64,000 nucleotides of DNA from Kiritimatiellia bacterium (GTDB lineage Bacteria; Verrucomicrobiota; Kiritimatiellia; RFP12; DVOR01). The first letter of the stretch is position 1. The number at the start of each line of letters is the position of its first letter. Made by a program: the position numbers and the translations under genes. Shown here piece by piece: positions 1 through 57,790 of this stretch. The notes under the pieces were generated by a model. The model saw nothing but the letters and a program-made list of their open reading frames with translations, was not told the origin of the DNA and did no database searches. The stretch is taken from positions 4,326 through 68,325 of the forward strand of contig CAAGNN010000031.1 of NCBI GenBank assembly GCA_900771325.1. Direction: 5' to 3'.

Positions 1-3000
1 CTCGCCGCCGGCAGGGAGGCCGCCGTCAGTAGCGCCACCGTCTCCGTCGGGGCCGCAGCCACGCGAACCGTGACCGAGCCTGCCGCCGTCACCGCACCGT
101 TGACCGTCATCGAAGCCGCCGGGTCAGCCGCAAAGATGGCACCATTCTCAAAGGTCAAGGCGCCCTTGACAGTGCCCGAGCCGCAGAGGACGGCATTCGG
201 CTTGATGGTCGTGGCACCTGTGCCCGTGGTGCCGGTCACGCGCAATGTGCCAGCATTGACGGTGGTATTGGCACAGGTGTTGACGGCCGAGGCAAGGACC
301 ATCTCGCCAGCGCCGGCCTTGATGAGGGTGCGATTGCCGTTATTGTCCGCCCCTAGCGAGGCCTCGATGTCAAAACGCGCGTTCTCTGCCACGGTGACCG
401 TCCAGTCACCATCGCGAACATAAGCAATGCGGTCGGAGTCGGAAGCACCGTCAGCGAAGGTGAGTTTAGAGACGGTGGGGTTCTCAGCTGTCGCGCCATC
501 GGCTGCGAGAACGGAGGTCTTGGGGCTTTGATAGAAGTCAAGACCACGATTGGACTCAGTAGCACCAGCCATCAGGCGAACAATGCCACCACAGAGCTCA
601 AGGGAAGTCTTATAGGTGTCGCGCTTATAAATCTCAAACGTACCGCCCTCTTCAAGGATGAGTTTCTGGTTGGTCCCGACATTCCAGCCCGTGGCATCGG
701 TATTAATTCCGGTTGCGAGTTTGGCCTGTTCGCCACGCACGGTAATCGTGCGCGTATAACCAGGGCCAGCCGCCGCACTCCACCAATTGGCAGCCACTGC
801 CGAATTGGGGAACTTCATTGTTCCGGAAGTGACCAGGATGTCTCCGGCAAAACGCACCTTGGGCGTGGCAGTAGAAGACTTTACCTGCAAGGTTTCAGCC
901 TCCGGCAACGCCAGTTCCAACACACCATCACCCGTAATCGGAAGCGTTGCTACACCCAAATCGACCACGTCATCCGTTTGTGCGAAGGCGAGGGCGTTAA
1001 CTTGCGTGGCGCGGAGTGTCGACCCGGCGGCGAGGGCGAGCGTGCCGGTAAAGGCGCTATTGTCCGCCGAGAGGGTGAGCGTGGCACCAGTGGCGACCGA
1101 GAGGGTCCCCGAATCCAGGGCGCGCGAGAGGGCGAGGTTGCCCGCGAAGGTGCGCGAGCCGGCAGCCCAAGCCGTCTCACCCGCGAGGGTGACCGTCTGG
1201 CCAGCGCCCGTGAGGGTCGCCACGCTCTCGGCCAAGTCGCCATCCATCGTCACCGTGGCGTCGGCAGAAGTCCCCTTGAAGGTGACCGTGTTGACGAAGC
1301 GCCACACAGGCGAGGCAACCTCGACCCCATCGGGGGTCTTCCAGGTGAGCGCCGAGAGGGCGACCGTGCCGGAGACCTCGGCCGTCAGGCTATCGTAGGG
1401 CATCCACTCCAGATAGATGGTCTTGACACCATCTGCCGTCGCCTCGCTCATCACATAGCCCGTGGGCGGGGTGAAGGTCGGCGTGGAGGCCGAGTTGGTC
1501 TTGAGGACCGCCGTGGAGGTCTCCGGGAAGTCCTCGGGAATGACGATGTCAGCCGAGCCGGAAACCGTCGAGAGGGTCAAGGCATTGCCACTGGCGTTGG
1601 CCAGGATCTTGCTGCCGTTCAGCGTGACTGCCGAACTCGTTATCGACCCCGTGCCGCCAATCGTCGTCCCTTCCGCAACGCTCGTCGCCTGCGTATGGGT
1701 GTTCTCCCCATTGAAGAGGATCGTGCCCGCGCCAGAGAGCGAAAGCGCATCATCGGGGTCGTTCTGCGTAATGGCCGCGTCCACCTGCAAGGTGGCGCCT
1801 TCTGCGACCACAAAGGCCGTGTTTTCATTGCCAGAGCACGCATTGTCGCCCTTTAGGCCAATAGCGTTGCCACGGAAGATGACCGGCTCGACCGACGCTC
1901 CAGCGACAACGTTCATTGTCACACCGCGCGTCAAGTAGAAGGAAGAGCCCTGGTTGTCGAGCACAGAACCCGGATGCCATTCCATCTTGCGGCGGAAGTG
2001 CTGCTCGTTGGTGCCAATCGTCACCGTGCCGCCATCCACCACGAGGACGGTATGGTCCTTTTGGGCGGTCACATTATCCCAACCAAAGGCATTCTTTTGA
2101 TTGACGGCCAATGTGCCACCGGTACGGACCTCAATCTGGCCAGAATCGGCAACGCTGCTATTCCAGTTCAAGAGCCCCTTTCGGTTCTCCGTGGCGCTTT
2201 CCGCCAAGGTGAGCGTGGCCCCAGTCTCCACCACCCAACGGCCAGTGAAGTTGTTATAGGCGAACTCGCTGCCACCGTCATTTCCTCTCGTCGAAGAGAC
2301 CGCAGCATTCTTGAGCGTGAGCGTGCCCGTGCCGGAGAGGCTGGTGGGGATGGTGGTGATAACCGCGCCATCGAGCGTGAGGCTCCCCTCGAGCGAGAGA
2401 GCGGTCAGGGCCGGGAGAGCGCCGCCGGAGAGGGTCAGCGCGCCCGAGCCGCGGAGCGTCAAGGAGGTGATGCTCGAGAAGTTGCCGGGGAGGATGAGCG
2501 AGGCCTCAGCGGCAGTGACATCGAGCGTCAGCGCCGTCACCCACTCCCAGTGAGGCGAGGTGATGGAAACACCATCAGGCGTCTGCCACGGCAGTTCATC
2601 CCAGGCCTTCGTGCCGTCCACCGTCGCGGTCAAAGCCGTGTAGCGGATGAGGTCGAGCGTGTAGGTCTTGACGCCATCGGCATCCGCCGTGGTGACACGG
2701 CTGTCGGCCAGAGCCGGCGTGAGGGTGAGGTCTGCCGTTTCGGCCGTCTTGAGCACCGCAATCGGGAGCGCGCTCTCGGCAACCGCCGCCCCCAGGACCA
2801 CCTGCGCAGAGCCGGTGGCACCATTGAACGTCAGGACGCTACTGACGCCTTCGGCCAAGAGTTTGGAGCCCTCCGCAAAGGTGACCGCCGAACTCGTTAT
2901 CGACCCCGTGCCGCCAATCGTCGTTCCTGCCGCAACGCTCGTCGCCTGCGTGTAGGTGTTCGCCCCATTGAAGCGGATCGTGCCCGCGCCGGAGAGGGCC

Positions 3001-6000
3001 ACCGAGGCGTAGGTGGTGTTCTGGTTGGAGAGCGAAGCCTCAACCGTCAGGGTCGCACCCTCACGCACCTCAATTCGGCTCGGAGCACTTGTCGAACTGG
3101 AGCCCGAGGTGGCACCATCGCAGCCGAACTTCGGACCGCTCCCGCTATTGAGGATGGTTGCCGTGCCCTCGGAGATGAGCAGGCGGCTGGCACGCGCAAG
3201 CCAGAACTTCCCATTCGGGTCAGAGAGGGTGGCCCCGTTCTTCAACTCGATGGTGCGGCGCAGGTACTGGTCGGCGTTATTGACCAAGGCACCGCCATCA
3301 ATCACCAGAACCGTCCGGTCGCACTGCGCGTCGATGTCCTTCCAGCCAAAGACGTGGTTCGCCGCGAGTTTGACCGTGGCACCCGCCTTAACGACAATCT
3401 GCCCGGAGCCCTCAACGTCACTCTTGGCGAGTTGGCCCTTCTGGCCACCACCACCCGCGAGGTTGAGCGTGGTTCCGCTTTCGATAATCCAACGCCCAGT
3501 GAAGCTGTTATAAGCGAAGGTAGATGCCCCGCCCGCCGCAGACGAAGTGACCTCGCCAGCGCTCTTGAGCGTGAGCGTGCCCGTGCCGGAGAGGCTGGTG
3601 GGGATGGTGGTGATGACCGCGCCATCGAGCGTGAGGTTCCCCTCGAGCGAGAGGGCGGTCAGGGCCGGGAGCGCGCCGCCGGAGAGGGTCAGCGCGCCCG
3701 AGCCGGGGAGCGTCAAGGAGGTGATGCTCGAGAAGTTGCCGGGGAGGATGAGCGAGGCCTCAGCGGCAGTGACATCGAGCGTCAGCGCCGTCACCCACTC
3801 CCAGTGAGGCGAGGAGATGGAAACACCATCAGGCGTCTGCCACAGCAGGTCATTCCAGTCCTTCAAGCCATCCACCGTCGCGGTCAAAGCCGTGTAGCGG
3901 ATGAGGTCGAGCGTGTAGGTCTTGATACCATCGGCCACCGCCGTGGTGACAAGGCTGTCGGCCAGGGCCGGCGTGAGTGTGAGGTCTGCCGTTTCGGCCG
4001 TCTTGAGCACCGCAATCGGGAGCGAACTCTCGGCAACCGCCGCGCTCAGGACCACCTGCGCAGAGCCGGTGGCACCATTGAGCGTTAGGACATTGCTGCC
4101 GCCTTCGGCCAAGAGCTTGGAGCCCGCCGCAAAGGTGACCGCCGAGTTGGCAATCGCCCCCGTTCCGCCCACGGTGACCCCGGCACCCACATTCGTCGCC
4201 TCATAGTAGGTATTCGCCCCATTGAAGCGGAAGGTCCCAGAGCCCGTGAGGTTAAGATCATTGTAGGGCGCACGGCCTTGATGCTTGCTCGTCAGCACGG
4301 CATCGAAGTTCACCACGGCTCCTTCGGCCAGGTCGAAGGTCGTGTGGAGGCCATTGGCATCTTCTCCACTCTCTGCACCTTCGCTATTGACGCCGGCATT
4401 CCACAAGTTGTAGCCTGCCGTGCCGGTGAAGTTCACCGTGCCGGAGACCGTCACCTTGCAGCCGCGCGTGAAGCCCACACTGCTGTTCGTGTTGTTGACG
4501 AAGGTAGCACCATCGCGCAACTCGATGGGGCGACGGAAGAGTTGGTCGTCCGCTCCAGTAAAGGCCACCGTGCCGCCATCGACCACAAGGACAGTCCGCC
4601 CGTCACTCGTCGACATAGCCTTATCCGCCCCACCCCAACCAAAGGCATTTTTTCCGGTAAGCTCGAGGGTCGCACCACGGCGGACCTCAATCTGGCCAGA
4701 AGTGGGCTGAGCGCTATTCCACGCCAGCGTGCCGTAATAGGTCTCACCTCCAGAGAGGCTGAGCGTCGTACCATCCTCAATAATCCACCGGCCCGTGAAG
4801 TCCGCGTAAGCGTAGTTCTTACCTGTGTCCGGAGACTTGGTCGAAGTCATTGCGCCACCATTGACCAGAGTCAATTCGCCCGTGCCGGTGAGGGTGGCGG
4901 GGATGGTGGAGATGAGCTCGCCATCCAAGGTGAGCGGACCATTGAGGGTGAGGGTGGTCAAGCGCGGAAGCGTCGCCCCAGAGAGGGTAATCGCCTCGGA
5001 GGCGGAGCCGATAGTCATCGTGGTCAGCGCCGTCAGGTTGCCCGGCAGGGTGAGCGCGACCGGCGCGCCGGCGGTATTCGTCAAGGTGACCGTGGTGACT
5101 GCACCCCAGGCAATCGCTGTAGGCTGGGTGGTGCACTCGGCATTGGAGCACCAAGCGAGGCCCGTCCAGGTGCCATCGCCAGGCACCTCCGCGTAGAGAT
5201 TCGTCACCACCGGGGCCGTGAAGGACACCACCAAGGCACCCTCCTCGGTCTTCTGCAACGCATAGCCCGTCGGCAGGGTGTCGCACGCGGGCACACTGCC
5301 CGTATAGGCCGAAGCCAGCGTCAAGACCGTGCCCTGCTGGGTCGTCGCAGCTTCAATGGCAGCCACGAGTTCATTGGAGAAGACCAAGGTGGTGCAGGTG
5401 AAGGTCTCGCGCGGGTCCCCGGTCGGCAAGGTCGAACCGGTCAGCTTCAAGGTGCCGACGGAGAGGTCGCCCGTCGGGACCGAGAGCATAGAGGCATCAA
5501 TCTCCAAGGTGGCGCCAATGCCAGTGATGCCGGAGTAGGCCGCGAAGGAGTCCACCAAGGTCAAGGTCGCCCCATTCCCCAGCGTGACAGCTCCGCAGAG
5601 GCCACTGTTCTCGACCGTGGAGGAGAGCGTCAGCGAGGTGTTCGCGCCAATGGTGAAAGCGCCTGTCGGCCAGGTCAGGGGCGCGCTGTTATTGGTGAGC
5701 GTGTAGGTGCCGTTCTCCGGGAAGATCATCCCGTTGGTGGGGCGGAGCGAGAGGCCGCTCACACCATCCGCAGTCCAGGAAGCGTCGGCAAGGTCGCCCG
5801 TTTCGCTACCCGCCCAGGTGAGCGCAGTATCGACGAAGCGATAGGTGTAGGAGAGCTTCCAGGTGCTGTCCGCCATCTGCGTGGCGGTGGGCTTGTAGCG
5901 CCCGGCGGTCGCCACCATCGCCGTGGTGAGTTCATTCGGCGAGGTGAAGAGCGGGATGGTCTCGGGCTGCTCATCGAAGGCCGAGAGGTCGATGGCCAAG

Positions 6001-35906: not shown

Positions 35907-37070
35907 ATGGCTAAAGGTCTCATTAAGAATGCGTATATTGTCAGCCCCGGGTACGAGTTCGACGGCGGGGCCATCGTCATCGAGAACGGCAAGATTGCCA
36001 AGGTGTTGCAGCCGGGTACGCCGCTTCCGACGGATGCCGATTGGGTCTATGATGCTGAGGGCAACCTGGTGATGCCTGGCTTCATCGATGTGCATACCCA
36101 CGGCGCGGTGGGCGTGGATGTCTGCGATGCCGACGATCCGACCGCGATTGAGAAGATTGCGAAGGCGAAGTTGGAAGAGGGTTGCACCGCGTGGTGCCCG
36201 ACCACGCTCACCCTGCCGCCCGAGCAGCTGGAGGCTTCGCTCAAGCACGTGGCCGAGTATCGCAAGAGCGAGAAGTACTCGAAGGTCCTGGGCGTGCACC
36301 TGGAGGGGCCCTTCGTCAACCCGGCTTGCTGTGGCGCGCAGAATCCTGCCTATCTCCGCAAGCCCGACATTGAAGAGGTCAAGCGCTTGCACGCCATTAC
36401 TCCGGTCTGCCAGGTCTCCTACGCGCCTGAAGCGGAAGTGGGCGACGGTGCGAAGTTCGCGCGCGACTGCCTGGAGATGGGCATTGTCCCCTCCGCCGGC
36501 CACACCAAGTGCTCCTACAAGGAGTTTAAGGCTATCTACGCTGCCGGTCTGCGCCACCTGACGCACTTCTGCAACCAGATGACCCCGCTCCACCACCGCG
36601 ACATCGGCCTGGTCGGTGCCGGGCTGCTTCTCGACGACCTGCGCGCCGAGATGATTTGCGACAAGATCCACCTCTGCCCCGAGATGATTGAGCTCGCTTT
36701 CCAAACCAAGGACCCCGAGACCATCCTCTTGATTACCGACTCGATGCGCGCCAGCCACATGCCCGACGGCCCCTCCAGCCTCGGCGGGTTGGACGTGATT
36801 GTGAAGGACGGCGCGGCGCGTCTGGCCTCCAATGGCGCTCTGGCCGGCTCCATCCTGAAGATGAATGTGGCCCTCAAGAATGTCTGGGAGATCACCGGTA
36901 TGCCCCTGAGCGTCCTGGTGAAGACCACCTCCTACAACCAGGCCCTCGAGCACGGCTTGGAGGACACCCTCGGCTGCATCGAGCCCGGCTACACCGCCGA
37001 CATCACCGTTCTCGACGACGAATCTTTCGCCGTCAAGGCGGTCTTCATCGACGGCGAGAAGCGCCTGTAA
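35907..37070 (+). CDS. nagA: N-acetylglucosamine-6-phosphate deacetylase
   Basis: GFIDVHTHG metal motif and overall NagA-like sequence. ATG 35907 follows the RBS, so I reject the 35814 start. Confidence 0.85.
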   Translation: MAKGLIKNAYIVSPGYEFDGGAIVIENGKIAKVLQPGTPLPTDADWVYDAEGNLVMPGFIDVHTHGAVGVDVCDADDPTAIEKIAKAKLEEGCTAWCPTTLTLPPEQLEASLKHVAEYRKSEKYSKVLGVHLEGPFVNPACCGAQNPAYLRKPDIEEVKRLHAITPVCQVSYAPEAEVGDGAKFARDCLEMGIVPSAGHTKCSYKEFKAIYAAGLRHLTHFCNQMTPLHHRDIGLVGAGLLLDDLRAEMICDKIHLCPEMIELAFQTKDPETILLITDSMRASHMPDGPSSLGGLDVIVKDGAARLASNGALAGSILKMNVALKNVWEITGMPLSVLVKTTSYNQALEHGLEDTLGCIEPGYTADITVLDDESFAVKAVFIDGEKRL

Positions 37071-37098
37071 GCTCCTTGCTTGGCGCAATACACACGAG

Positions 37099-37132
37099 GC
37101 GCGCGGTCCCACGGCCGCGCGTCACGTTTTTT
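37099..37132 (+). terminator. Rho-independent terminator of nagA
   Basis: CGCGCGG..CCGCGCG stem followed by tcacgtttttt. Confidence 0.6.
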
Positions 37133-37184
37133 ACACCTGCCCCGCCAATGTGACCTCCTCATTGTCCGCGGCGCGCGAAAGCGA

Positions 37185-37213
37185 TTGACTTTCGCGCGCC
37201 GCAGGGGTATACT
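37185..37213 (+). promoter_or_regulatory. Near-consensus sigma70 promoter (TTGACT, 17 nt, TATACT)
   Basis: 37185-37190 TTGACT, 37208-37213 TATACT. The predicted TSS at A37220 is exactly where conservation with the 56945 copy begins. Confidence 0.7.
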
Positions 37214-37219
37214 GTAGGT

Positions 37220-37475
37220 ACATAGTTTGATTCTGGCGATGTCCTAGACCTCTCGCCGTCTCAGACGCAGAAAGTTGCGTCACGCAACCTTTCGTCCAAA
37301 GGAAACGACCAATTTCACTGCACGGACGAAATGGCTGCGGAGACGCGCTGGGGTTATCCCCTGGCGTGTTTCCCCGTGCTGTTTTCGTGCAAGGCTTTGG
37401 TCGGCCTCCTTTGGAAACATCCGGCAGGAGACACGCCTTTTTGTCTCTCCTGCCCAACCCGCAGCCGCAAGGCTG
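37220..37475 (+). ncRNA. Structured 5' leader RNA, copy 1 (unassigned family)
   Basis: Nearly identical to 56945-57167 over the first ~76 nt, the apical region and the 3' box. Three helices carry compensatory substitutions between the copies (see findings). It ends with hairpins before the RBS gaaggag at 37483-37489. Confidence 0.6.
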
Positions 37476-37496
37476 CAACCGAGAAGGAGAACGACA

Positions 37497-38006
37497 ATGC
37501 AATATGTCCTTATATTAGACGGAGAGCCTAATACAGGAAAGACTAGCACGCTTTCCCTGTTAATTGACGAGATCGCAAGAATTACTAGCCACTCCCCTGA
37601 CCAAGAGTATGTCTGGGGCGGATCTGGGACGAACACGACTCTGCAACCTACTACTAATAATCCAACATCCACCAATACGGATAAATGCGTCTACTTCGAT
37701 CTTGGTCAGCAAAACACTATTCTCATCGCGACCTCTGGTGATACGCGAGAAAGAATAGAAGTCGTATTGGAGAAGGTCTTAGGGACACCTCCTGACCTAT
37801 CTCCAAGATTCTTGATTTTGGCCAGTTCGCACTCAGATCGTCAAAAGCATTATCGCTATATCCTAGATCGCCTCGAGAAAGAGGGTAAGATCCTGGGCGA
37901 AATTGAAGAGATAACGATGCTTGAGACAAAACGAAATCAAGGGAGTGCCACTGCCAATGTATCACGGATTATTGACTATTTAAGAAACCGTAATGTATCC
38001 ATCTAA
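37497..38006 (+). CDS. Small P-loop NTPase-like hypothetical protein (169 aa), AT-rich gene
   Basis: Walker A-like GEPNTGKTS near the N-terminus and ILIATSGD as a possible Walker B. 25 G+C in the 60 nt at 37501-37560. RBS gaaggag. Confidence 0.6.
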   Translation: MQYVLILDGEPNTGKTSTLSLLIDEIARITSHSPDQEYVWGGSGTNTTLQPTTNNPTSTNTDKCVYFDLGQQNTILIATSGDTRERIEVVLEKVLGTPPDLSPRFLILASSHSDRQKHYRYILDRLEKEGKILGEIEEITMLETKRNQGSATANVSRIIDYLRNRNVSI

Positions 38007-38155
38007 GAGTTTGTAATTCCAGACTCAAGGCACATCGTTTTAGAATGTAAGGTTATTCGTATAAGAATCTACGATGTTAATTATTTCGTTTCTTGAGTAA
38101 TCTTACGCTGAGACGATGTGCTCGTATTGTGAACGCCTAGATGCAGGAGATTGTT

Positions 38156-39394
38156 ATGAAGTTGTACAGATTACTCATTCTAGTAGGATTGGTTACGCCT
38201 GTAATACACGCAGACACTTGGACGGATCCTCAGACGGGTATTAACTGGCGGTACACTCTTTCCAATGGAACCGTTGCAATTGGCGAAGGATTGGATCCTT
38301 TATGTACAGCTATAGCCCCCTCCTATGCAGGGTCTCTCTCCATTCCCACCTCCATCAATGGAACCACTGTGGGTAAATTAAGCGATTACGCATTCCTCGG
38401 CTGCACATCGGTAACCGCTGTGACTATTCCAGAGGGAGTTACCTCCATTGGATTGGCAACCTTTCACAGTTGTAGATCGCTAGCCTCTGTGACTATTCCA
38501 GAGGGCGTAACCTCCATTGGAGAGGTAGCCTTCTCCGGCTGCTCGTCTCTGATCTCTGTGGTTATCCCCGAGAGCGTTACCACTATTGGCTCCGGAGCCT
38601 TTGACAATACATACTGCAAACTTATTTTTACTGGGCGACCACCGAGCGAGGGCTTAAGTGAGATTACAATCGAAAGGATAGAGTATCCGGAGGAATACAC
38701 AACAATTTGGGAGCGGGCGCTATTCTTAGCGTGTCAACCAAGTACTGTGTCGGTGCGTGCAGAAATGACGACCCCCAAGACAATGAAGGTAACCTACAAG
38801 GTCAATAGTCTGTTCTCGCGTGCAAAGGTGCGGGCCGTTGCGTGGAAGGATGGCGTGCGTTCTTTTGCCAATATCGTTCCCGTCAAGACTGCGGCGGAGG
38901 GGTCTCAGGAAGCGGTGCCGAATGGTGAAGCGGTGACAACTGGCGTGGAACATACCTTCATTTGGCAAGTGTCTGATGATTGGAGTATTGACTTGGCGAA
39001 AGTTGCCGTAGAGGTGCTGGCCGAGGAGGCCGGGCTACTTCCGCAGGACCTTGTGACCATTCCGGCAACAGAGACGCACGCAAAGATGACTTTCACAGTC
39101 AATACACCTACCACCGCGCAACTCTTCAACGCACTCGTCTGGTACTATGCCGATGGCGACTCTGCGCTCACGGTCTCAAATGGCGTAGTGAGAATCAATG
39201 GCACGCAGGTGGTTAGCGGTTCATCGCTCAGCACATCAACGACCAATGCAACGGCCTTGCTGAATTATCTCTACGGTAAACTGGGTTACAAGGTGCTTTC
39301 GGGTAGCGATTTGTCCTACGCAAAAGCAATGACACGCCTGTCGTTGTCGAATAGCGGTCTCACCCAACTGTCAGTCAAGATTTCGGAGGAGTGA
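38156..39394 (+). CDS. BspA-type LRR surface protein with unknown C-terminal domain
   Basis: AGGAG lies 6 nt before ATG 38156 (MKLYRLLILVGLVTPVIHA is signal-like), so the track start 38141 is less likely. LRR_5-type repeats are present (VTIPEGVTSIGxxxFxxCxSL). Confidence 0.8.
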   Translation: MKLYRLLILVGLVTPVIHADTWTDPQTGINWRYTLSNGTVAIGEGLDPLCTAIAPSYAGSLSIPTSINGTTVGKLSDYAFLGCTSVTAVTIPEGVTSIGLATFHSCRSLASVTIPEGVTSIGEVAFSGCSSLISVVIPESVTTIGSGAFDNTYCKLIFTGRPPSEGLSEITIERIEYPEEYTTIWERALFLACQPSTVSVRAEMTTPKTMKVTYKVNSLFSRAKVRAVAWKDGVRSFANIVPVKTAAEGSQEAVPNGEAVTTGVEHTFIWQVSDDWSIDLAKVAVEVLAEEAGLLPQDLVTIPATETHAKMTFTVNTPTTAQLFNALVWYYADGDSALTVSNGVVRINGTQVVSGSSLSTSTTNATALLNYLYGKLGYKVLSGSDLSYAKAMTRLSLSNSGLTQLSVKISEE

Positions 39395-56593: not shown

Positions 56594-56815
56594 GTGCAAA
56601 ACTAACTCGCCCCGGGGCCGGGGTCAACCCGGGGCGGGTCGGGGGTCAACCCGGGGCGGATAAAAATGTAAAGCGCCCCGGGGCCAAAACGAACCCGGGG
56701 CGGATGCGAGGCGAACCCGGGGCGGATGCGAGGCGAACCCGGGGCGGATGCAAGGTGAACCCGGGGCGGGTCGAGGGTGAACCCGGGGCGGATGCGCCTG
56801 AAGGTCGGCCCGGGT
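56594..56815. repeat. Composite 22-bp CCCGGGG-core tandem array (left flank of the RiPP cluster)
   Basis: gtgcaaaactaactcgccccgggg, then (g)gtcaacccggggcgggtcggg units, a central aaaaatgtaaagcgccccggggccaaaacgaacccgggg, then gcgaacccggggcggatgcgag units. It is preceded by gtacgcgcgcgcacgcgcg (56547-56565). Confidence 0.9.
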
Positions 56816-56944: not shown

Positions 56945-57270
56945 ACATAGTTTGATTCTGGCGATGTCCTAGACCTCTCGCCGTCTCAGACGCTAAAAGT
57001 TGCGTCACGCAACCTTTCGTTCGATGGAAACTACCACCCTCCACGCGAGAACGAACAGGCTGCGGAGACGCGCTAGGGTTATCCCTGGCGTGTTTCCCCG
57101 TACTGTTTTCTCGCAGGGCTGTGGTAGGCCTCCATCGGAAACAATCGGCAGGAGACACGCCTTTATTGTTTTCCTTCCCCTTGTCTGTTTGGTTGCGCGG
57201 TCGCCTCCCGATGGAGGCCTCGGCGGGTGCCGATGTGTCTGTAGCGGGAAGAGGTGTAACCCAGCCCAGG
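56945..57270 (+). ncRNA. Structured 5' leader RNA, copy 2 (conserved part 56945-57167)
   Basis: Paralog of 37220-37475 with the same TSS-proximal sequence ACATAGTTTGATTCTGGCGATGTCCTAGACCTCTCGCCGTCTCAGACGC. Compensatory changes are present in the helices. Confidence 0.6.
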
Positions 57271-57281
57271 CAGGAGGGCGT

Positions 57282-57569
57282 ATGCGTGTAGATTGGAAGG
57301 CGAAGGTCATCATTCCGGATGACAACGCGAGCGGGGCGGCCGATTCGCCGCTTGCGGGGTGGCGCATTGTCAAAGCCAAGCACGGCTGGATGAACCTGCC
57401 CGACCGCGAGAGTGTGAGTACGTGGGGGACGCACCTCACGCGCGCACTCTTGGCCGAGTATCTCGCGCAGGTGCAGGTGACCGAACAGGCCCTTGCGCCC
57501 GATGAACCTCGCTATCATATCGCCGTGCCACCGTGCCAAGTGCGCTTGGAGACGCACCTGACCCCCTAA
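57282..57569 (+). CDS. Hypothetical 95-aa protein, first ORF of the RiPP operon
   Basis: RBS caggaggg 4 nt before ATG 57282 (MRVDWKAKVIIPDDN...). The upstream part of track ORF 57000..57569 overlies the leader RNA and is rejected. Confidence 0.5.
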   Translation: MRVDWKAKVIIPDDNASGAADSPLAGWRIVKAKHGWMNLPDRESVSTWGTHLTRALLAEYLAQVQVTEQALAPDEPRYHIAVPPCQVRLETHLTP

Positions 57570-57652: not shown

Positions 57653-57790
57653 ATGGCTTATCAGAAACCCGAAGTCGTGGCGAAGTCTGCCGCGAAGGAA
57701 TCCTTCGTCGCCGGCTGCCCGGCGGAAAAGGTCCAATGCACCGATTGCTACTGGAACAACCAGCAGTGCATGTGCGGTCCTTTGAACTAA
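57653..57790 (+). CDS. RiPP precursor peptide, 45 aa with 5 Cys in the C-terminal 24 residues
   Basis: MAYQKPEVVAKSAAKESFVAGCPAEKVQCTDCYWNNQQCMCGPLN. RBS aaaggag at 57640-57646. It lies immediately upstream of two radical SAM/SPASM genes. Confidence 0.75.
   Translation: MAYQKPEVVAKSAAKESFVAGCPAEKVQCTDCYWNNQQCMCGPLN

Follow-up and report, generated by a model that had tools for sequence, protein, structure and literature searches.

The 64-kb window (the whole stretch of 64,000 nucleotides analysed here) carries two copies of an RNA element, both on the forward strand: copy A at 37220 to ~37460 and copy B at 56945 to ~57185. The element is a structured RNA of ~225 nt directly downstream of a strong promoter. 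Comparison of these copies with their homologues shows an RNA that is predicted to adopt two mutually exclusive folds, both of which bear sequence signs of selection. The reading that we favour, and consider probable, is that the element is a cis-acting 5′ leader, a bistable transcription attenuator that would decide transcription of the accessory operons behind it.

Two copies of the element behind sigma70-like promoters

No third copy was found in the window by blastn, and 17-22-mers from the conserved boxes each occurred exactly twice in it, compared with 0-0.8 occurrences expected by chance. A preliminary description of this DNA had reported near-identical 5′ sequences of ~76 nt starting at A37220 and A56945. 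Copies A and B indeed agree in 76 of their first 78 aligned columns and differ only at nucleotides 50-51. The near-consensus sigma70 promoters reported ahead of each copy were also recovered:

37185..37213, + strand: copy A promoter, -35 TTGACT, 17-nt spacer, -10 TATACT (10/12 matches), inferred start A37220
56909..56937, + strand: copy B promoter, -35 TTGACA, 17-nt spacer, -10 TATACT (11/12 matches), inferred start A56945

In both copies the RNA starts ~7 nt past this promoter and ~5 nt upstream of the first hairpin, P1. It is the sole sigma70-like promoter in each intergenic region; in neither window copy did the stretch from the preceding gene to the first ORF contain a second one.

Homologues of the element

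One exact-word scan of the GTDB species genomes yielded four homologues: L031 and L032 from one Ca. Spyradenecus MAG, L034 from another Spyradenecus MAG, and L033 from a Lentisphaeraceae MAG. Judged by these relatives, the window comes from a gut bacterium of the Lentisphaerota, within the PVC group. Their promoters lie at the same distance as in the window copies. Three helices of the RNA (A, B and C, see below) differ among them; P1 and P2 are invariant, as are the apical hairpin and the 3′ box, the two parts already noted as conserved, which do not vary in these four Spyradenecus/Lentisphaeraceae relatives. These invariant RNA blocks are 100% identical between loci, while the downstream proteins are barely alignable.

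Two diverged copies were reached via homologues of the GTPase encoded at L031. A covariance-model search had been suggested in the preliminary description, and a model built from the six close copies (A, B and L031-L034) confirmed both: L042, on a 92-kb metagenome contig and identical to L043, scored 115.6 bits, and L048, an AT-richer copy in NCBI assembly GCA_965321935.1, scored 41.6 bits. The homologue set thus comprises eight sequences, seven of them distinct, from a narrow clade.

Twelve further loci with homologues of the GTPase (L044-L047 and L049-L056) are without the RNA, which is therefore not obligatorily tied to this protein family. Gut-metagenome contigs with the first gene of copy A carry an identical leader, and homologues of this 169-aa protein were limited to two near-identical proteins on short contigs, giving no new RNA variation. 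A search of phage and plasmid collections (blastn, distant mode) did not find the element. Several candidates were rejected as chance matches: one locus from the same GTDB scan (L030), all 22 matches to a 17-mer in viral contigs, as judged by their flanks (L008-L029; three pattern scans gave either these or nothing), and all seven matches to the 19-nt 3′ box in JGI metagenome contigs (L035-L041).

The first fold: hairpins P1, P2 and P4 and a long rod

The minimum free energy (MFE) of the RNA is -111.8 kcal/mol for copy A and -104.8 kcal/mol for copy B (z -7.6 and -7.9), and none of 200 dinucleotide shuffles was as good. The opposite strand of the element folds less stably (-99.3 kcal/mol, z -4.3), as expected of a transcript from the + strand with many G-U pairs; five such pairs are invariant in the apical stem alone. 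Covariance-model scores show the same asymmetry, with 263-272 bits on the + strand versus 32-43 bits on the - strand.

A consensus structure, fold 1, was obtained with RNAalifold from the six close copies. Its elements in the window are as follows:

37220..37266, + strand: copy A, 5′ end and hairpin P1 (nt 6-47), present in both folds; invariant in the six close copies
37274..37288, + strand: copy A, hairpin P2 (nt 55-69), GUUGCG-UCA-CGCAAC; forms in fold 1, opened in fold 2
37295..37415, + strand: copy A, rod P3 (nt 76-196), proposed antiterminator; from RNAalifold and covariation
37423..37454, + strand: copy A, hairpin P4 (nt 204-235), in which the 3′ box pairs with the downstream sequence CUCUCCUGCC; 85.7% paired
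56945..57013, + strand: copy B, 5′ end, P1 (56950-56991) and P2 (56999-57013); from MFE and consensus fold
57020..57139, + strand: copy B, rod P3, proposed antiterminator; from MFE, consensus fold and covariation

Across the six close copies 96.8% of the cells of this fold are paired and 11 pairs are changed on both sides, a result equalled by none of 500 column shuffles. The rod consists of the variable helices A, B and C and an invariant, G-U rich apical hairpin of 15 bp. The preliminary description had noticed that helices A-C differ between the two window copies with pairing kept, and this is so. The covariation stands; its extent was slightly overstated, since instead of at least seven pairs changed on both sides there are six such pairs and nine changed on one side. 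The selected RNA fold proposed on these grounds is strengthened by the six further sequences: with L042 and L048 added, giving eight sequences, 20 of the 44 rod pairs are changed on both sides. Fold 1 is real. Hairpin P1 is also kept in L042 with a different sequence (GUUUGAG/CUCAAAC, GGCGG/CCGCC, GAUGC/GCAUC); in L048 it has a different shape.

A second, mutually exclusive fold ending in a terminator-like hairpin

The RNA had been described as a rod-like hairpin flanked by conserved domains, with the 3′ box and the apical hairpin as plain conserved parts. The rod and the conservation hold, but that description missed that the 3′ box is also the 3′ arm of a terminator-like hairpin, and hence a second fold that excludes the first. 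Block d, which is the 3′ box GGAGACACGCC, nearly repeats block b, the 5′ arm GGAGACGCGCU of the apical hairpin, and both are complementary to block c, the 3′ arm GGCGUGUUUCC of that hairpin. Forcing c to pair with d gave a complete alternative structure, fold 2, lying 2-13 kcal/mol above the MFE. P1 is unchanged in it. The other parts are a helix termed H-alt, formed by P2 plus the linker UUCGUCC on one side and the rod 5′ arm (GGACGAA..UGCG..GACGC) on the other, a small GGGG/CCCC hairpin, and a long terminator-like hairpin composed of c:d, CCG:CGG, the pair 159:202, UGUUUUC:GGAAACA and a cap AGGCU:GGCCU. The long hairpin has 22-26 bp and a stability of -30 to -40 kcal/mol, and a U tract (UUUUUGU, UUUAUUGU or UUUUUU) begins 0 nt after block d in all eight sequences. 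Hairpin and U tract together look like an intrinsic terminator. The window coordinates are:

37274..37348, + strand: copy A, H-alt (nt 55-129), proposed anti-antiterminator; from the MFE of nascent prefixes and half-molecule folding
37363..37437, + strand: copy A, terminator-like hairpin (nt 144-218), GGCGUGUUUCC pairing with GGAGACACGCC; 3′ half z -4.3
37438..37444, + strand: copy A, U tract UUUUUGU, abutting the terminator stem
56999..57073, + strand: copy B, H-alt, proposed anti-antiterminator; 5′ half z -3.6
57087..57169, + strand: copy B, terminator-like hairpin (57087-57161) and U tract UUUAUUGU (57162-57169); 3′ half z -3.7

In the alignment of the six close copies the 45 pairs of fold 2 are 99.6% paired, compared with 43-53% when the partners are slid, and two of them, 77:106 (C-G/U-A) and 159:202 (G-C, A-U, C-G), are changed on both sides. 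When the molecule was folded in halves, the 3′ half alone (from c to the U tract) formed the hairpin followed by the U tract in all seven distinct sequences (z -3.7 to -6.0; 0/200 shuffles), and the 5′ half alone formed H-alt (z -1.9 to -4.0). The halves of a simple rod would have no reason to fold on themselves.

The diverged copies L042 and L048 differ from the others in the sequences of b, c and d, and both pairings, b:c and c:d, are retained in them. This amounts to a three-way covariation, in which positions c6, c7 and c9 change along with their partners in b (the rod) and in d (the terminator), and it indicates that selection acts on both of the exclusive folds. Plain MAFFT alignment of the 3′ halves followed by RNAalifold returned the terminator hairpin, with 26 pairs, eight of them changed on both sides. 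Its cells are 96.2% paired versus 44-58% with the partners slid, a level reached by 0-1 of 500 shuffles.

H-alt shows little column-wise covariation, as it is mostly invariant in the close copies and shifted in register in L042 and L048. Nascent prefixes 132-145 nt long nevertheless have it as their MFE structure in all lineages, the AT-rich and quite different L048 among them, and the rod replaces it as MFE only from ~160-190 nt of transcript. The GC-rich repeats GGAGAC and GGCG allow alternative pairings, and in some MFE predictions d pairs with the P1 5′ arm.

The pattern of sequence conservation

Each block that has a partner in both folds is free of variation in the six Spyradenecus-group copies; the set comprises P2 with its linker, GAACGAA, GGCUGCGGAGACGCGC, GGCGUGUUUCCCCG, CUGUUUUC, AAGGCU, GGCC, GGAAACA and the 3′ box. 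Helices A, B and C, which are paired in the rod alone, vary without this restraint. Pairing in both folds thus explains the invariance of blocks in the Spyradenecus group, with the exception of P1 and the J12 linker between P1 and P2, which are invariant there and not dual-paired. Paralogues within one genome (A and B, L031 and L032) always differ in helices A-C. The L032 copy (2874-3152) is a mosaic, with helices A-C and apical loop of the copy B type and P4, ribosome-binding region and P-loop/LRR genes of the copy A type, which implies recombination between leader copies.

Genes downstream of the element

The preliminary description had placed accessory operons behind both copies, a surface/cohesin island and a RiPP cluster, and the gene annotations agree:

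37497..38006, + strand: copy A, first gene, 169-aa P-loop protein
following it: BspA-type LRR protein, 1929-aa and 435-aa cohesin-domain proteins, more co-directional genes
57282..57569, + strand: copy B, first ORF, 95 aa, no family match
following it: 45-aa Cys-rich peptide, two radical-SAM/SPASM enzymes, amidohydrolase, ABC transporter
L032: P-loop protein, BspA LRR protein
L034: 28-aa peptide, radical-SAM enzyme, ABC transporter, Clp-like protease
L031, L042 and L048: GTPase of a family with faint DO-GTPase Pfam matches
L033: 29-aa ORF first; htpG, dnaX and recR further downstream

The neighbours of L042 include PDDEXK_4 and SMC_N/AAA_23 genes. What the loci downstream share is an accessory and possibly conflict-related character, not membership of a single metabolic pathway. 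PADLOC gave only weak matches at the level of the P-loop (mad8, AriA), so that no known defence system could be assigned.

Several smaller observations concern these genes. The faint Pfam matches of the GTPase family are to DO-GTPase1/2, and about half of the family members examined are without such a leader. The neighbourhoods of the GTPase genes (L042 1-8717, L049 and L048) contain PDDEXK_4, SMC_N/AAA_23, PrsW-protease, AEP-TOTE/DEAD and PLD-like genes and resemble defence islands. The 45-aa ORF behind copy B (57653-57790, MAYQKPEVVAKSAAKESFVAGCPAEKVQCTDCYWNNQQCMCGPLN) has a Cys-rich C-terminus and lies just before the two radical-SAM/SPASM genes; it is likely to be a RiPP precursor. The 28-aa peptide of L034 (2770-2856), ending in CLLITC, matches it in position. 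The GC content is 0.48-0.51 over the P-loop and LRR genes (window 37000-39000) compared with 0.60-0.68 in the flanks, a drop which suggests that the first genes after copy A were horizontally acquired.

Comparison with known RNA families and leaders

The preliminary description could assign the RNA to no known class. In agreement with this, a scan of the whole window with Rfam 15 (4227 models, including riboswitches, T-box, EAR, 6S, SRP, tmRNA, RNase P and Acido-Lenti-1) gave no match at the gathering level, and neither did scans of L031, L033, L034, L042 and L048. A permissive scan of 37100-37600 returned nothing meaningful, the best match scoring 18.6 bits against a threshold of 60 and lying on the wrong strand, and no T-box match appeared in this interval even at E up to 10. 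Nothing specific on an RNA motif of Lentisphaerae/Kiritimatiellae, or on a comparable attenuator, was found in the literature. The element constitutes a new family within a kind of regulatory RNA that is already known.

That kind is probably the transcription attenuator based on an intrinsic terminator. The 5′ leader contains a predicted stable hairpin with an immediate U tract upstream of the first gene, and a mutually exclusive antiterminator (b:c) that uses the 5′ arm of the terminator, c. In trp and his leaders the pairings are 1:2, 2:3 and 3:4, and the PyrR-controlled pyr leaders of Bacillus contain a terminator, an antiterminator and an anti-antiterminator. The element shares with both an overlapping chain (a:b, b:c, c:d) in which the middle pairing prevents the last, a hairpin with U tract, so that the decision would fall during transcription of the leader. 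Unlike the trp and his leaders, it has no conserved leader peptide. The preliminary description had found reading frames unpreserved in the variable part, and indels of 1-3 nt in the apical loop and in the J23 linker between P2 and the rod do break all frames between the copies; a leader peptide was rejected for this reason. The only AUG ORFs have 2-3 codons, lie in P1 and are without a Shine-Dalgarno sequence, which does not fit a ribosome-mediated attenuator of the trp/his/leu type. Unlike the pyr leaders, the element has no recognisable PyrR-type binding loop. It also departs from classical attenuators in its antiterminator, an unusually long rod of ~120 nt, and in being conserved with its promoter as a unit before unrelated accessory operons.

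A proposed model for attenuation

The proposed mechanism, which is modelled from predicted pairings, involves four blocks in a chain: a (P2 and the UUCGU linker), b (the rod 5′ arm), c (the rod 3′ arm) and d (the 3′ box). The a:b pairing, H-alt, would act as anti-antiterminator; b:c, the rod, as antiterminator; and c:d, the long hairpin abutting the U tract, as intrinsic terminator. If the rod forms, d would be left without a partner or pair in P4, and polymerase would read into the operon; the ribosome-binding site would then be left free in some members. If H-alt persists, c would stay single-stranded until d emerges, the terminator would form and an RNA of ~225 nt would be released. Termination at the U tract, as well as the biasing of the fold choice by a signal, is inferred. 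Termination would need H-alt to be held until d appears, by a bound factor or by fast elongation, and the choice might be biased by a protein or small molecule at P1, P2 or H-alt, or by the speed of elongation.

The energetics bear on when the choice would be made. As soon as d has been synthesised, the energies of the rod and fold 2 lie 1.2-9 kcal/mol apart, and the barrier to refolding by the direct path is estimated at 37-53 kcal/mol, an upper bound. The small gap and the large barrier imply that the fold would be chosen co-transcriptionally. For the full-length RNA at equilibrium the rod is the more stable fold of every copy, by 2-13 kcal/mol, and a kinetic trap or some factor would be needed for the terminator fold. 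The first ORFs begin 50-130 nt past d and, having no sigma70-like promoter of their own, would rely on read-through. In three loci (copy A, L032 and L034) the strand of P4 opposite d can cover the Shine-Dalgarno sequence instead if d is occupied; this may constitute a second, translational layer, which not all members possess.

Should the model hold, a gut phylum that has received little study has an RNA family not described before, with a regulatory logic that can be read from sequence alone, and one leader design joins RiPP biosynthesis, surface-adhesin islands and conflict-type NTPase operons, pointing to a shared regulatory signal. A wider version of this reading, which we put forward tentatively as possible and rather less than probable, makes the element a signal-responsive attenuator class (a riboswitch, or a leader sensing a protein or the elongation rate) specific to PVC bacteria (Lentisphaerota and relatives), which would place unrelated conflict and accessory loci under one common signal; helices A-C would then keep the leaders of one cell from mispairing. 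The loci concerned are DO-GTPase-like/P-loop NTPase operons in neighbourhoods resembling defence islands, radical-SAM RiPP clusters and islands of giant surface proteins. No sensor domain was found to be conserved across all three lineages, and P1 differs in L048.

Alternative explanations

The first alternative is a special case of the attenuator model, with the RNA itself as the sensor: the element might belong to a new class of small-molecule riboswitch, whose 5′ part (P1, J12, and P2 or H-alt) would be the aptamer and whose ligand would bias the choice between H-alt and the rod. The likeness to riboswitch and T-box leaders is considerable. Promoter, conserved structured 5′ domain and a platform of exclusive terminator and antiterminator follow the usual layout, some members have a layer that hides the ribosome-binding site, and P1 contains asymmetric internal loops conserved in the Spyradenecus group and L042. 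The want of a match to any Rfam class would suit a new class, and sets the element apart from known leaders of this type. We nevertheless regard a riboswitch as unlikely. The genes controlled (P-loop NTPases, GTPases, LRR/cohesin proteins, RiPP enzymes) have no metabolic theme in common, most invariant nucleotides are already accounted for by dual pairing, and the different shape of P1 in L048 means that no aptamer-like core is conserved across the three lineages.

The element could also be a stand-alone, trans-acting small RNA of ~225 nt with its own promoter and terminator, read-through being incidental. The unit includes a conserved promoter and start site, its conserved part ends in a terminator-like hairpin with U tract, and a genome has several copies of it, all of which agree with such an RNA. 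A small RNA of this sort would have no need of an antiterminator and an anti-antiterminator kept by three-way covariation, however, and its terminator would be hidden in the equilibrium fold. The element moreover always faces a co-directional first ORF, 50-130 nt away and lacking its own sigma70-like promoter. We consider this explanation improbable.

Processive antitermination, in which the rod would bind RNA polymerase and modify it to pass terminators in long operons, is known from HK022 put and Bacillus EAR, which are likewise structured RNAs near the start of long accessory operons. The promoter-proximal position, the co-directional array of ~19 kb after copy A and the very high sequence conservation agree with it. 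The put and EAR RNAs bind polymerase and are without a terminator of their own, whereas the element contains a conserved terminator-like hairpin and U tract, which, together with H-alt, this explanation leaves unaccounted for. Some members are followed by short gene sets, and neither EAR nor any other Rfam model matches. This makes a put- or EAR-like function very improbable.

A repeat acting at the level of DNA, such as a mobile promoter cassette, a palindromic repeat or a recombination site, would account for a unit that is repeated in the genome beside unrelated gene cassettes and that undergoes mosaic exchange, as in L032 with its copy B helices and copy A 3′ tail. It would not account for the five G-U pairs of the invariant apical stem, which are mismatches in DNA, for the strand asymmetry in folding and covariance-model score, or for compensatory changes in two alternative RNA folds, and neither phage and plasmid collections nor viral contigs held a match. 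A DNA repeat without RNA function is thus scarcely credible. An invertible promoter was rejected on the G-U pairs and strand asymmetry, which favour RNA; a retron, bridge RNA or omega RNA, there being no reverse transcriptase, recombinase or TnpB nearby and the variable parts pairing with one another instead of being exposed as guides; and a CsrA sponge, on its few and mostly paired GGA motifs.

Other sequence features around the copies

Directly upstream of the copy B promoter (56613-56796) lies a tandem array of the 22-nt GC-rich unit CGAACCCGGGGCGGATGCGAGG, with 4.9 copies, together with a related array of 2.1 copies; copy A has no equivalent of these arrays. In copy A (37463-37478) and in L032 a small GC hairpin, GCAGCC-GCAA-GGCUGC, is situated between P4 and the ribosome-binding site. 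The 5′ end of the element, AUAGUUUGAUUCUGGC (37223-37237 and 56948-56962), resembles the universal 5′ end of 16S rRNA, AGAGUUUGAUCCUGGCUCAG, and GAACGAAC recurs in the rod; this is probably due to chance. The Logan short-read contigs L004 and L005 (position 1) break at ACATAG, the RNA start, or inside the 3′ box, which is what conserved blocks present as multi-copy repeats in those genomes would lead one to expect.
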